The translations under genes were made by a program, and so were the position numbers. Under the pieces are notes generated by a model that saw nothing but the letters and a program-made list of their open reading frames with translations, made no database searches and had not been told where the DNA came from. DNA of 64,000 nt from the NCBI GenBank assembly GCA_965262425.1, contig OZ253536.1:4944412-5008411 (forward strand), read 5' to 3'. Position 1 is the first letter of the stretch. Each line of letters begins with the position of its first letter. This DNA comes from Terriglobia bacterium. GTDB taxonomy: Bacteria > Acidobacteriota > Terriglobia > 20CM-2-55-15. Of the stretch, positions 16,596 to 37,088 are shown piece by piece.

Positions 16596-16760
16596 GGGCC
16601 TGCGCGGCAGAAGAGATCTACTGCGAAAGCAGTAGAATCGGTCCATATTTCCCCGATTTTTCGTTGAATAGAACCACTATTCGCCTCAAAATCGAGAAAA
16701 TCTGTCCTCGATTCCCTGCTTTCTCGCTACGATCCCTTCTGCCGCGCAGGCTCCTAGCGA
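16596..16760. repeat. MITE/REP-like element with 25-bp terminal inverted repeats GG(G/A)GCCTGCGCGGCAGAAG(A/G)GATC
   Basis: Left TIR is 16596-16620 and right TIR is 16736-16760 (22/25 match). The first ~85 bp recur at 26866..26950. The right TIR abuts the stop codon of the SBBP gene. Confidence 0.65.
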
Positions 16761-19114
16761 CGTCGAACAACGAAGAATACGATTGTCCCGACCAGCAGGA
16801 CCGTTATGCCGATCCCGACCGGCAGAACCATACGACTCCCAGGGGGCGGTGGTTCTGTCGTGTCAGCTGTTGTATCAGACGCGGCAGGCTCTCCGACTGT
16901 GGGGAAGGGTACGGGTTGGTCCGGGGTGATTCTGACTATGAAAGCGTCGGAGGAGCCCCCTATCCCGCCGGGTTGGATAGGGTTCGGAAAAGGCACCATG
17001 TCGAAATCGTCGGAATAGGTTCGTCCGGTCACGTAGAGGTCACCGCGTCTGTCCCCAGCGATACTTTGACCACGATCTTCTTGACTGCCGCCAAAGTACA
17101 TAGAAAAGACAAGCTGTGGGAAGCCGGCTATACCGAAATCCAACTGTGCGACGAAGGCAAACGGAAGGTCCTCGTCGTTCAGGGCGTTGTTCTCCCCCGG
17201 AAAGCCGCCCCAGCTTTCCCCAGTAATGTAGGGGTTTCCGGCGGTGTCTACGACAATCCCGCTGACGGATTCCTCGAAAAGGCCACCGAGATAGGTAGAG
17301 TTGACCAGCGAGGCCATGCCGACTAGGTTCGGATCGATCTTCGCCACAAAGACGTCTCGACCTCCCCCCCCGAAACCTCCCTGAAAGGCCCGTACTGTGG
17401 GGAAGCCCTCGTTGACGTTCAACGTTTCGATGTCGTCTAGAGAACTAGTGTTCCCCGTCACGTAAGCGTTGTCTCGATCGTCCACGTCAATACACCGGGG
17501 GCAGCCCCAGCTTCCGTATAGCTCCGGACCAGTGCCGCCGAGGTAGGTGGAGTAACGGGGCTCACCGGACGCACTCAACTTCGTCACGAAGGCGTCGTAG
17601 GTGTTGCTCGCGTTCTCTCTTTGAAAAGCATTCTCGGTCGTGGGGAAGCCTTCATCCTCCGGCGTGTTCGTAACATCTGCCGAATTGGTCGTACCGGTCA
17701 CGTAGGCTTCGCCCAGTGCGTTCACGGCAATGGCGCTTGCAACCTCGTCTTCGCGGCCGCCCAGGTATGTGGAATAGATGAGACGTCTTCCATCGGCATC
17801 GAGCCTCGCCACGAACGCGTCGAAACGGCCAGCGTTGGCATCCTGGAAGGCATTTTGTGTTGGAAACGCCTCGTCCCCTGGGATACCGGGATCGTTCCGG
17901 GACAGAGTTTGGCCCACCACGAAGGCATCGCCTTGAAACACAGCGATGCTCAGGGCCCGGTCCCTGGCGAGTCCGCCCAGATATGTAGAGTAGACGAGCT
18001 GGTCGCCGTTGACACTCAACTTGGTCACAAAGGCGTCGTTGGCGCCTGCGCGGTTGGGCTGAAAGGCATTATCTCCGGGATCGGGATTACCGATCGGAAA
18101 GGTCGGGAAGTTGTCTGAAGCGGTGAAGCCCGTCACGTAGGCATTGCCTTCAGCGTCCAAATCGATGCTCAAGCCAAAATCGCCAGCCCCTCCACCGAGG
18201 TATGTTAGGTAGACGAGCCCGTTGCCCGCAGCATTCACCTTCGTTACGAAAGCATCGGATGAGGGTACGTCTGGGTCACCTCCACGCGCGCCCTGAAACG
18301 GGTTCAGACCAGGCGGGGCTAACGTAGGGAGATCCACTGCCTGGGTTTCCCCGACTACATAGGCGTTGCGGTTCGCGTCTACAGCGATGTCATTGCCACG
18401 GTCATTCCCGGTGCCGCCGAGGAAGGTGGAATAGGTCATCACCGGATCGATCACCAAGCGCTGGCTGACATCATAGTCGGCCACCTCAAAGCCGACCTGA
18501 CGGGCTCCTTTGAGCACATAGCCGGCCGGAATGATCCGACGGGTGCCGCTGTGCTCCTGGTAAACCAGAGGCTGCCGGAAGCGGATCTCGTCACTGCCCA
18601 TCCCGACCCTCAGATCCCCGCCGTCGTCCACCTCCACGCGCTCGACACCCTCAAAAATCAGCGCGATGGCCTCGTGGTCCGCTCCCGGCGCCACCACAAA
18701 GTCGTACTCCAACTCGCGCCGGGTCGTGCCGTAATAGACCACATCCACTCCGGGATAGACATCCCGATATCGAACCCTGGCATAGTGAGGAATGTTCGTC
18801 CGCCACTTCTCGGCATCGCTGCCGATTAAGTAGTTGATCTTGCCGGGAAGTTCCTCCAGCCCCTCCGCCTGTGACGATGGAGCAGCACCCGCCAGTCGCA
18901 CCCGCAGTACGGATGGCTCGGCCGGCGGATGGCCTGCAACCTCCGTCCGGTTGTCTACATCCCCCCCGGGACGAGACGGCCCTGAGACGGGAGGATGAGT
19001 GAAGACAAGCGTCACCTCCGTGGCAGTCAAGAACAGGGTGTACCCCCTACCCCGAGAAAGGAATTGGACGCGGGCATCGGTCTGTGAACCGCCCCGGGTT
19101 TCCCGGAGACCGTT

Positions 19115-20026
19115 TTAGTTGACTCCGGCCACGGTGACTGGAGTTGCTTCGTTGCGATAGTACACCTGCTCGAACTCGACTGGAGGAATGTATCCGATCG
19201 GTTCGAGAAGGCGGTGCTCGTTGTACCAGGACACCCAGTCGAGTGTCGCGTACTCCACATCGTCAAGACCTCGCCAGGGCCCCTCTCTTCGAATGACTTC
19301 GGTCTTGAATAACCCGATTACAGATTCGGCCATGGCATTGTCGTAGGAGTCCCCGATGCTCCCAACCGACGGCTCAATTCCGGCCTCGGCCAATCGTTCC
19401 GTATACCGAATCGACAGATATTGGACGCCGCGGTCGCTGTGATGAATCAAACCTTCAGTGTCAGGGCGCGACCAGAGGGCCTGCTCCAGCGCATCCAAGG
19501 CAATGTCAGTCTTTAGCGAATGCATCGTTCGCCAACCGACGATCTTTCGGGAGAAGACATCGATGACGAATGCGACGTAAACAAACCCTCGCCATGTTGC
19601 AACATACGTGAGATCCGCGATCCACAGCTCATTGGGACGGGTCGCGCTGAAGTCCCGATCCACAAGATCGGCGGGTCTGAGAGCTACTTCATTCTGGATA
19701 GTGGTCTTGATCTTCCGGCCCCGAACCACGCCTTCAAGCCCCATTTCCCGCATCAATCGTTCAACGGTACAACGGGCAACGTCTGTGTTCTCGCGATTCA
19801 ATAGCTTCCAGACCTTGCGGACGCCATAGACCTGACGGTTTTCCCTCCAGACCCGATCGATCTCGACTCGAAGCTTCGCGTCGCGCTTCGCACGCGCGGG
19901 CAATCGATCTGGATTCTTTTCCCGTGCCTGGTGCTCGTAGAACGTCGATGGGGCGATCGGCAGCACACTGCAGATCGACTCGACCCCATACCGGCCTCGA
20001 TTCGTCTCGATGAAATCCGCCATCAC
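19115..20026 (-). CDS. IS3-family transposase OrfB (DDE integrase core)
   Basis: The 303-aa protein has an rve-type DDE core (HSDRGVQY). It overlaps orfA by 4 nt in the -1 frame. Confidence 0.85.
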
Positions 20027-20355
20027 CGGGGTCGGCGGTCGAGTTCCGCCTGTGCGAAAAACGCTGACGCCTTGCGCAGGATCTCGTTCGCTCGTTTCAG
20101 CTCACGATTCTCCCGTTCCAGTTCCTTTAGCCGTTGTTTCTCGTCCTTGGTCAGGCCCCCACGTTGGCCCATATCACGCTCTGTTTGCCGGACCCACTTA
20201 CGCAGTGTTTCTGGGGTACAACCGATCTTCGCAGCGATCGACGCCATTGCCGCCCACTGTGAGGCGTACTCCCCCTGGTGCTCGGCCACCATTCGTACCG
20301 CACGTTCCCGAACCTCGGGTGCATATCTGCTTGCTCTTCCCATAATGACTCCCAT
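20023..20355 (-). CDS. IS3-family transposase OrfA (HTH)
   Basis: The 110-aa protein has an HTH and a leucine-zipper-like region ([24 protein letters not shown]). Confidence 0.85.
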
Positions 20356-35721: not shown

Positions 35722-35935
35722 AACTCACCTCAGATACGCGGATAGAAACCTGTCACTATTAGTAATCAGTTTATGATAGCACTAGCAAGCTAACAGTCAA
35801 GGTATTCAATAGTTTTCGGATCGCCACCGGCTGCTAAAATACCTCCGGGCCGCGTCGTCCGATAATAGCGAATCTCCGGACCGCGGTCCGTGAGCCAGAC
35901 TACGGAATATAGACGGGCGGACCAAGCAAACGATT

Positions 35936-36403
35936 ATGGAAAAACGAAGCAATCCAGTGTTGCTGGGCGGAGACACGATTTCCGACAGGGTTCTGCTTTC
36001 AGCGGTGGCCGCCTGGTGCGGGGCGATCATCGCCGCTCCGTTATTTGATTCAGGGTTGCTTTACGGTCTCTTCTCTTCCATCTGTCACCAATACCCGGAA
36101 CGCAGCTGGTTCTTGTCTGGACAGCCCCTTGCCGTGTGTATCCGGTGTACTTCCATCTATGTTGGCTTTCTGGTTGCGCTCGCTCTTCGGTTACCACCGC
36201 GCACCGGATTTCTACGATTCGCGGTTGTTCTGACGGGGGTCGAGGTCGTGGTTGCGCACATGGTCATCGACATGGAGGTCGTACGCTCGCTCTCGGGCCT
36301 GTTGCTGGGGCTGTCGGCGGGGGGATTCGTCGCCCAGGGTGTTCGCGAACTGGTCGGTCTGCTGGGCCGGATTTCCCGGAGGGATTCGTTTGAAAACGTG
36401 TAA
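35936..36403 (+). CDS. DUF2085 membrane protein
   Basis: It has the motif ICHQYPERSWFLSGQPLAVCIRCTSIY. Confidence 0.75.
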   Translation: MEKRSNPVLLGGDTISDRVLLSAVAAWCGAIIAAPLFDSGLLYGLFSSICHQYPERSWFLSGQPLAVCIRCTSIYVGFLVALALRLPPRTGFLRFAVVLTGVEVVVAHMVIDMEVVRSLSGLLLGLSAGGFVAQGVRELVGLLGRISRRDSFENV

Positions 36404-37019
36404 GCAATGCAGCGTCACGCTCGCCGACCAGGCCCAGTACTGCATGCAGTGCGGCACGCCGGTCGAACCGGAAGTTCCAGTACAGGTTGGAGAAACGGCG
36501 ACGGATTTCATCCAACCGGCTTTGGTCGGCGGGGCTGCTCTGGGCATCCTTTCCTCCCTTCCGATGGTGAACATCGGTAACTGTATTTGTTGCATGTGGG
36601 TTGTAGGAGGCGGGGCGCTCGCCGCGTGGATGCTGACCAAGCAGCGTCCCGAAGGCACAACGGTAGTGAGTTACGGGGACGGCGCCTTTGTAGGAGTGCT
36701 CAGCGGGTTGTTCGGCGCGATCATCGCAACCATCGTCTCGCTACCCCTTCGACTGATCGCTCGAGAGGCACTGGGTTCCCAGCGGGCGGAGTTTGAAGAA
36801 CTGCTGAACGAATTCCCGGAATTGACAGGCTTTATGCGGGACTTGCTGCTTCGCCTCGTCTCGCCTGAGATCTCCTTCGTCACCGTTCTGGCGACGTTCT
36901 TCGTGAACCTGATCACGTTCTCGCTGTTCGCGATGATTGGCGGGATCCTTTTCGTTGCGATTACCGGTCGAAAAGGGCAAGCCCCGGCGGGAGCCACATC
37001 TCAGGGTCCGCAGGGTTGA
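36390..37019 (+). CDS. zinc-ribbon domain membrane protein
   Basis: The N-terminus has CKQC...CMQCG followed by 4 TM helices. The TTG start is chosen at 36390, since the first ATG lies after the first CxxC. Confidence 0.5.
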   Translation: MKTCKQCSVTLADQAQYCMQCGTPVEPEVPVQVGETATDFIQPALVGGAALGILSSLPMVNIGNCICCMWVVGGGALAAWMLTKQRPEGTTVVSYGDGAFVGVLSGLFGAIIATIVSLPLRLIAREALGSQRAEFEELLNEFPELTGFMRDLLLRLVSPEISFVTVLATFFVNLITFSLFAMIGGILFVAITGRKGQAPAGATSQGPQG

Positions 37020-37088
37020 GCCAGCAGCTTGGAGCCTGCGCGGCAAGGGCCCGGGTTGCCTCACGCTGATCGCTCAACCCCGGTCGGG

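Follow-up and report, generated by a model that had tools for sequence, protein, structure and literature searches.

Introduction

Among IS630-type elements, RUP from Streptococcus pneumoniae and the Correia elements from Neisseria are comparable to the repeat described here, a miniature inverted-repeat transposable element (MITE) in a 64,000-nucleotide stretch of a Terriglobia bacterium genome (Acidobacteriota; assembly GCA_965262425.1, contig OZ253536.1, positions 4,944,412 to 5,008,411; this whole stretch is hereafter the window). Other described systems come close in single respects. MITEPsy1 of Pseudomonas syringae is a 100-nt MITE derived from the IS5 family, which inserts at CTAG or YTAA (PMC3189936). 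Repetitive extragenic palindromic sequences (REPs) possess a fixed GTAG or CGTC head and are associated with tyrosine transposases (PMC3733652). Finally, some members of the IS1182 family of insertion sequences (ISs) have been reported to favor palindromic targets (PMC5678879).

An initial annotation of the window had described a REP- or MITE-like 16-mer in four copies, joined to stop codons at three convergent gene ends. It had proposed for this repeat either a role in transcription termination or mRNA stabilization, or an identity as a non-autonomous MITE with a preference for gene 3' ends. Our analysis makes it likely that the repeat is a MITE with the ends of IS1182-family ISs, that it inserts at the TA of CTAG and rebuilds the TAG stop codon that it meets there, and that the positions of its copies can be explained without invoking a function.

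Results

Four motif sites in the window represent three insertions

The motif G(G/A)GCCTGCGCGGCAG was found at four sites in the window: 16596(+), 16739-16753(-), 26867(+) and 37032(+), the last with one mismatch. Only 0.53 occurrences were expected and none of 100 shuffles gave four, which confirms the fourfold occurrence reported initially. The extended 19-mer GGAGCCTGCGCGGCAGAAG, searched with up to three mismatches, returned the identical four sites (0.03 expected). Self-comparison of the window showed that positions 16592-16677 and 26863-26948 share 93% identity over 86 nt, in agreement with the similarity previously noted between these two copies, and that positions 16592-16757 are 76% self-complementary over 169 nt. 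The four motif sites trace to three insertions of a single MITE, present as a complete 160-bp copy (sites a and b), an 83-bp remnant (site c) and a 16-nt remnant (site d). These copies and the stop codons beside them are as follows.

16595..16754 (+): complete 160-bp MITE (family A), with left arm, central loop AATAG-AACCA-CTATT and right arm, forming one long hairpin
16595..16613 (+): left terminal inverted repeat GGGGCCTGCGCGGCAGAAG, with one mismatch to the consensus, which is that of IS1182-family IS ends
16736..16754 (-): right terminal inverted repeat GGAGCCTGCGCGGCAGAAG, the motif match on the minus strand
16593..16594 (unstranded): left flanking TA, which doubles as the right TA of an adjoining IS630-family element
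16754..16756 (-): TAG stop of the SBBP/DUF7948 gene (16754-19030, minus), composed of the terminal base of the MITE (16754) and the TA beside it (16755-16756)
26864..26866 (+): TAG stop of rpsU (ribosomal protein S21), made of the target TA (26864-26865) and the first G of the remnant (26866)
26866..26948 (+): 83-bp left-arm MITE remnant, right arm deleted; the A at 26949 is the residue of the right-hand TA
26966..26992 (+): native intrinsic terminator of rpsU, outside the MITE and present in filled and empty alleles
37017-37019: stop of the zinc-ribbon gene, which faces groEL
37031..37046 (+): solo terminal remnant GGAGCCTGCGCGGCAA, after CTT, between the convergent zinc-ribbon and groEL genes

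The junctions (a slash marks the limit of the element) read ...cacTA/GGGGCCTGCGCGGCAG...CTGCCGCGCAGGCTCC/TAGcgac... at site a/b, ...gagcTA/GGAGCCTGCGCGGCAG... at site c and ...agcTT/GGAGCCTGCGCGGCAAggg... at site d. By these junctions, the complete element measures 160 bp (16595-16754) and lies between two TA dinucleotides, which corrects the 165 bp first assigned to it. The gene names given initially (SBBP/DUF7948, rpsU, zinc-ribbon) were upheld. The described register holds at the SBBP and rpsU stops, each of which adjoins the element as TAG/GAGCC, but site d follows CTT and is out of stop register. Likewise, sites c (rpsU/pta) and d (zinc-ribbon/groEL) do lie between convergent genes, but the other flank of site a/b is an IS630-family element, inserted into what had been the upstream region of a co-directional DUF188 gene. 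Finally, the GNRA-capped hairpin CTACTGCgaaaGCAGTAG attributed to copies a and c is perfect in a, but copy c has CTACTGTGAAAGCGGTAT instead. The two arms of the MITE are roughly 70% complementary, and the RNA fold of the complete element reaches -98 kcal/mol (z = -12).

The 83-bp rpsU remnant is also present in two strain variants (loci L179 and L180; fetched loci are cited by such numbers below), and the 16-nt solo end was recovered in L179 as well. Comparable solo ends occur in L008, L024, L035 and L044.

A multicopy family in related genomes

A one-genome-per-species exact-match scan with the end motif returned at least 50 loci. Among the 50 that were listed, 49 come from three Terriglobia/Solibacteraceae genomes, chiefly the 6.4-Mb chromosome OZ252023.1; one of the three matches the window at 99.7% identity, and OZ252023.1 does so at about 94%. 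These loci and the window contain 41 complete elements: 23 measure exactly 160 bp, the modal length, eight measure 179 bp and a few are longer. The complete copy of the window is 93-99% identical to the 40 others, and an alignment of 25 copies presented a mean column identity of 96%. The 179-bp copies possess one extra 19-bp internal tandem unit. This unit, CTCGACTTTGAGGCATTYC, lies in the right arm, where we observed one to about six tandem copies (e.g., L035 4133-4387 and the 179-bp copy L002 1007-1185).

The element is shorter than 500 bp, has no transposase coding capacity, and presents 19-bp inverted ends, flanking TA dinucleotides, many copies, insertion polymorphism and ends shared with ISs. 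It thus has every structural property of a MITE, and the initial suggestion of a non-autonomous MITE is supported by the 41 complete copies with their inverted ends and flanking TA. Loci in which the sequence diverges after the end were checked as possible autonomous parents: L001 proved to be a MITE split by an IS1595-family element, and L008, L024 and L044 were rejected, being solo ends beside ordinary genes. A left arm running into non-MITE sequence (GATTTTTCGTTRAATAGAACCACV) had no match in the metagenome scan, and the end motif had none in viral contigs.

In the family consensus, read left to right, the frame that begins with the first G of the MITE is free of stop codons. With the duplicated TA, the insertion adds 160 + 2 = 162 nt, or 54 codons, such that an in-gene insertion in this frame would add 54 residues without a frameshift. 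Several open reading frames (ORFs) of related loci extend into the MITE (L012, L043, L046).

Insertion at TA, preferentially within CTAG

We analyzed the flanking bases of the copies. Reading outward from 76 ends, the base at -1 is A in 75 cases, the base at -2 is T in 66 and the base at -3 is C in 60, with no conservation beyond. The base preceding TA is C in 79% of the ends and otherwise T, A or G. The first base of the element is a G retained in 77 of 78 ends, and GGA is found in 76-77 of 78. Junctions are therefore typically of the form C-TA/GGAGCC...GGCTCC/TA-G. Both flanks are TA in 32 of the 41 complete elements, and one flank is mutated in the remaining nine. Some copies, such as TTA/GGAGCC...GGCTCC/TAG, have unlike outer bases on their two sides, which fits a 2-bp duplication of TA in a preferred C-TA-G context but does not fit a duplication of 3 or 4 bp. 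We rejected a 4-bp (CTAG) or 3-bp duplication because the inner G/C is invariant (77/78), the outer C/G is variable (60/76) and the two sides of single copies differ.

The rpsU site offers a comparison of alleles. The window, L179 and L180 carry the insertion there, and the site is empty in L051, an ENA contig encoding an identical RpsU protein, where the sequence reads gagC-TA-Ggttctgtag (allele gagCTAGgttctg). Relative to L051, the window has 85 additional bases, and the A kept before ggtt is the remnant of the second TA. The empty allele indicates that the TAG stop of rpsU predates the insertion, and that the element rebuilt this stop and did not supply it. Taken together, the flank statistics and the truncated rpsU site suggest a duplication of TA, a reading that appears well supported.

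Other loci were less informative. The strain variants of site a/b (L172-L178) all carry the MITE or are rearranged, and none represents an empty site. In L147, an IS lies within an ABC-ATPase gene; the sequence downstream of this IS does not resume the gene, so the duplicated bases cannot be counted. We did not detect a longer palindrome or a terminator hairpin as target: in 111 elements, mirror complementarity outside CTAG did not exceed the background level (0.25-0.35). Two ISs (L058 and L065) are located in perfect palindromes.

Unoccupied CTAG sites occur in the same DNA at 0.37 per kb, about half of them within genes. Where the flanking CTA of a copy is mutated (loci L052-L171 and L001-L050), it mostly reads CCA/GG or (C)CTG/GG. 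These are the products expected if a T:G repair of the very-short-patch type erodes CTAGG, and such repair may explain why old flanks decay and also why CTAG is scarce.

The same ends bound IS1182-family insertion sequences

A metagenome scan with the 19-mer returned at least 120 loci, and in the loci listed the same 19 bp following CTA precede many unrelated internal sequences. Six of the metagenomic elements are longer (1485-1559 bp), with the motif at both ends and a single ORF of 440-443 amino acids (aa). The ORF passes the NCBIfam IS1182 model NF033551 (386 bits against a cutoff of 270) and presents the Pfam domains DUF772, DDE_Tnp_1 and DDE_Tnp_1_6. The six transposases are only 52-73% identical to each other and their contigs range from 48% to 67% G+C, yet their ends are identical. 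A protein search retrieved thousands of relatives, named IS1182-family transposases, in Betaproteobacteria, including Cupriavidus necator, and in others. The IS of C. necator assembly GCA_053747635.1 possesses the ends GGAGGCTGCGCGGCAGAAG...CTGCCGCGCAGCCTCC and CTA/TAG flanks, and its left TA plus G forms the stop of a small ORF. In total, at least seven ISs (the six metagenomic ones and that of C. necator) present the same 18-19-bp ends on both sides, cTA/TAg flanks and a protein of 439-443 aa. By this comparison of termini, the MITE bears the ends of a widespread IS1182-family clade, and a transposase of this clade, supplied in trans, would be what moves it.

The shared end is not limited to one family of MITEs. 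Across all loci, 94 short complete elements fell into 13 clusters of internal sequence, one of which is spurious (a chance end-like match in the IS of L147), leaving at least 12 MITE families that share the end. Six families of 160-163 bp can be aligned with each other and have in common CTGCAA, GGTCCA, a central tip ATAG-N5-CTAT, CTGTCCTCG and TTTCGC. Their hosts range from 52% to 65% G+C and their internal identity between families is only 51-69%. The two arms are nonetheless about 0.6-0.7 complementary in each of the six families, with compensatory changes in 13 of 35 consensus pairs, and the fold-back is thus a conserved property of this MITE superfamily. We also observed mini-elements of about 24-66 bp, which comprise barely more than the two ends (e.g., GGAGCCTGCGCGGCAGAAGGCTCC) and are flanked by CTA/TAG (L004 3757-3795, L077 5158-5181, L099, L104, L127 and L129).

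It is conceivable that the fold-back architecture is itself selected, either as a hairpin or cruciform substrate for the IS1182 clade, an idea that ties in with the palindromic targets reported for this IS family, or as 3' untranslated region (3'-UTR) hairpins co-opted to cap genes ending in TAG. We regard this extension of our interpretation as unlikely.

Stop codons are probably rebuilt by the insertion

Such an element would become joined to stop codons by the insertion itself. We propose that it inserts at a TA dinucleotide, preferentially in 5'-CTAG-3', leaving TA on both sides. Its first base is G and its last is C, so each junction would again read C-TA-G. When the target CTAG includes the TAG stop of a gene, the stop would be rebuilt from the target TA and the G of the element, and the gene would be unharmed. 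Insertions elsewhere in genes would be lost by selection, which would leave both the register and a bias toward gene 3' ends. With a target TA in CTAG and a G at the start of the element, the left junction always reads TAG and the right one always CTA.

The distribution of the copies was compared to that of stop codons. At least 100 open codons are found upstream in the TAG-containing frame at 30 of 78 ends, relative to seven and 11 ends for the other two frames, and 26 of those 30 ends truly read TAG. At least one TAG stop is overlapped by 26 of 60 sites (43%), and five sites do so on both sides, representing convergent genes that share one CTAG. Free non-genic CTAG sites fall on a stop in 17 of 88 cases with greedy gene calls, or in 18 of 79 (23%) with the same open-frame criterion. 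MITE sites are thus about twofold likelier to lie on a stop than free non-genic CTAG (P about 0.003-0.01), and the contrast in stop overlap with all free CTAG gave P = 3 × 10−5 (Fisher test). No preference was observed for either arm beside the stop (14 left, 10 right; P = 0.42).

These results bear out the preference for gene 3' ends put forward in the initial annotation (stop overlap at 43% of the sites against about 19-23% of free non-genic CTAG). The comparison of copies with stop codons and structure that it had called for was conducted here on the loci of related genomes, and it returned both a positional bias and a conserved long hairpin.

The same two observations are what would be expected if the element were kept at gene 3' ends as a terminator or as a 3' hairpin that protects the mRNA, with the register resulting from selection. 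The hairpin is indeed very stable, and the complementarity of the arms (about 0.6-0.7) persists with compensatory changes in six families whose internal sequences are 51-69% alike. Several results argue against this explanation. rpsU has a terminator of its own further downstream whether or not the element is present, and the copy at this gene lacks half of the hairpin. An intrinsic terminator consists of a G+C-rich hairpin with a T/U tract directly behind it; the element has no T-tract at its end, and the only such structure at rpsU is the separate one at 26966-26992. A scan with the covariance models of Rfam 15 at the gathering score revealed no match at the repeats; its only matches in the window were ALIL and two c-di-GMP-I. 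The absence of an arm preference argues against an RNA function that depends on orientation. Moreover, over half of the sites are not at stops, and the copies are both young (96% alike) and polymorphic; truncation is frequent, and other ISs have inserted into the copies. The terminator role first proposed is therefore not upheld, and we consider a function at gene 3' ends to be quite unlikely as the cause of the pattern. The rpsU terminator, T-tract and Rfam results are compatible with a hairpin of -98 kcal/mol having some effect in a 3' UTR, but the positions can be explained without a role in termination or mRNA stability. The stop-codon register is a by-product of the TA-in-CTAG target and of the terminal G, and it is not evidence of function.

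Candidate transposase and alternative origins

Several observations weigh against an IS1182-ended MITE that duplicates TA. Neither the 64-kb window nor the roughly 0.5 Mb of related Terriglobia loci revealed an IS1182-type transposase gene. The MITE arms present no significant subterminal similarity to the seven ISs, with which only the 19-bp ends are common, and a closer parent IS than these seven may exist. ISPse1 of Paracoccus, the one experimentally captured member of the IS1182 family that our literature search returned, produces a 4-bp duplication (PMC3281130), and IS1272 of Staphylococcus, from the same family, targets hairpins and replaces the hairpin without duplication (PMC5678879). 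Our literature search found no 2-bp TA duplication documented for the IS1182 family. Flank-to-flank BLAST across all fetched loci yielded no filled and empty pair for a full-length copy. In addition, the approximately twofold excess on stops is one that we infer to result from purifying selection; we attribute it to selection because an insertion on a stop leaves the protein unchanged and is far from promoters.

The IS630/Tc1-mariner family, of which the window contains three copies, could provide another transposase. TA flanks in CTAG are given as an IS630 signature (Tenzen & Ohtsubo 1991, as cited in PMC2170065), the IS630 copies of the window are flanked by C-TA...TA-G and one of them adjoins the MITE. 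We initially assigned the MITE to this family for mobilization. The assignment was dropped since the ends are unrelated and IS1182-type ISs with identical ends were found. Indeed, the IS630 ends GTGGTCCCCGTCAAACAG / GTGTAGTCCGTCTCAATT present no similarity to those of the MITE, whose 19-bp end is identical to IS1182-family IS ends instead. The abutment can be explained by IS630 re-using a CTAG regenerated by the MITE, as a third, unrelated IS does in L174. Mobilization by IS630 is thus very unlikely.

The least probable explanation is that of a REPIN, in which a REP-associated tyrosine transposase (RAYT) or an IS200/IS605-like one mobilizes a pair of inverted REP hairpins as single-stranded DNA. 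In its favor, the end does possess a small hairpin CTGC-GCG-GCAG beside a TAG-containing head, the doublet does fold into a long REPIN-like hairpin, and tyrosine transposases enclosed by long inverted repeats are known from Acidobacteria (PMC3733652). Against it, neither GTAG nor CGTC is fixed as the head, and different bases occur ahead of the TA. This TA is already present in the empty site and, after insertion, lies on both sides of the element, which is the kind of duplication typical of DDE transposition. Seven ISs with a DDE transposase are bounded by the same ends, and an approximate IS200 TnpA query, which is a weak test, found no Y1 transposase match in the window or the fetched loci. 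The REP identity and the IS200/IS605 TnpA link proposed at first are accordingly replaced by termini of IS1182-family DDE ISs with a duplicated TA.

Re-use of insertion sites and other features of the window

Each MITE insertion regenerates two CTAG sites, which are otherwise scarce, and these sites are re-used by ISs. In the window, an IS630-family copy lies beside the MITE in this way; it is listed here with the other copies of its family and with the IS21-family element nested in it.

12514..16592 (-): IS630-family IS, split by an IS21-family element at 12966-15883, inserted in the TA at the left end of the MITE; ends GTGGTCCCCGTC...
52119-53269, 55898-57048 and 12514-12965 + 15884-16592: three IS630-family copies of 1151 bp, with 96-100% mutual identity
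12966-15883: IS21-family element (IstA 13156-14859, IstB 14558-15484), nested in the IS630 copy that adjoins the MITE

The IS630-family IS uses the same CTAG/TA target as the MITE and has unrelated termini. Its transposase (361 aa; DDE_3 and HTH domains) matches NF033545, and each copy is flanked by C-TA...TA-G. In L174 (4150-5903), an IS with a DDE_Tnp_1_4 transposase and the ends GCCCGCATTTCTCA, which starts with G, lies in the same TA beside the MITE as the IS630 copy of the window. In L001, an IS630 copy adjoins another MITE, the one that is split by the IS1595-family element. The DUF188-SBBP locus (L172-L175, variants of window positions 5947-18535) differs in its IS content among assemblies that are 99.8% identical to the window.

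Other features were observed in this DNA. The ends of the IS21-family element are arrays of a 22-bp repeat (12974-13104 and 15815-15878). A rearrangement breakpoint at about 24269 of the window (L001 2511; L173 169/170) is shared by two related assemblies, whose surrounding sequence departs from that of the window there, and no repeat was identified at this breakpoint. A probable IS3-family element at 19064-20418 presents 59-nt inverted ends and contains the Rfam ALIL frameshifting pseudoknot (19949-20065, minus strand, 103.6 bits). Two tandem c-di-GMP-I riboswitch aptamers lie on the plus strand at 47437-47532 (72 bits) and 47597-47703 (66 bits). Positions 43600-43633 form a perfect 34-nt palindrome between an A-run and a T-run, which resembles a bidirectional intrinsic terminator. 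Finally, positions 2068-2712 and 8873-9516 are 81% identical paralogous segments of two Ser/Thr-kinase / PD40 beta-propeller genes located 6.8 kb apart.

Discussion

Our results suggest that a repeat welded to stop codons can be explained by simple transposon mechanics, and this example guards against over-reading such repeats as regulatory. The element is ordinary selfish DNA with a neat explanation of its position. A high-copy repeat of Terriglobia and at least a dozen metagenomic MITE families are hereby tied to one IS1182-family clade, itself marked by an unusually conserved 19-bp end and by a CTAG/TA target. With its single invariant end and its conserved fold-back, this superfamily may merit the attention of a mobile-element specialist; our literature search found no paper containing the 19-bp end sequence. 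There are also practical consequences. The MITEs and the CTAG-seeking ISs that pile up beside them mark hot spots of strain-level rearrangement and will break assemblies. Moreover, the MITE could be mis-annotated as a C-terminal extension because one frame is open through the element.

The comparison with known systems places the element between several of them. REPs and REPINs (mobilized by RAYTs) resemble this MITE in their high copy number, their location downstream of genes and their long-hairpin doublets (PMC3733652), but the MITE has no GTAG or CGTC head and instead presents a duplicated TA and the ends of DDE-type ISs. MITEPsy1 shares the CTAG target, and the transposases of IS5 and IS1182 are related DDE_Tnp_1 enzymes; it duplicates 4 nt, however, whereas the invariant inner G/C and variable outer C/G observed here fit a duplication of 2 nt. 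IS630 and the MITEs related to it are alike in small size, inverted ends, TA on both sides, mostly intergenic location, hairpin and CTAG target. In contrast to those systems, the ends of the present element mismatch the local IS630, and the matching autonomous elements belong to another transposase family. That family is IS1182 (NF033551), from which the MITE differs in having no transposase and in sharing nothing but the ends, and its net TA (2 bp) departs from both the 4-bp duplication of ISPse1 and the absence of duplication in IS1272. The likeness resides in the 19-bp ends of seven ISs and in the target, since palindromic targets have been reported for the family and CTAG is a palindrome.

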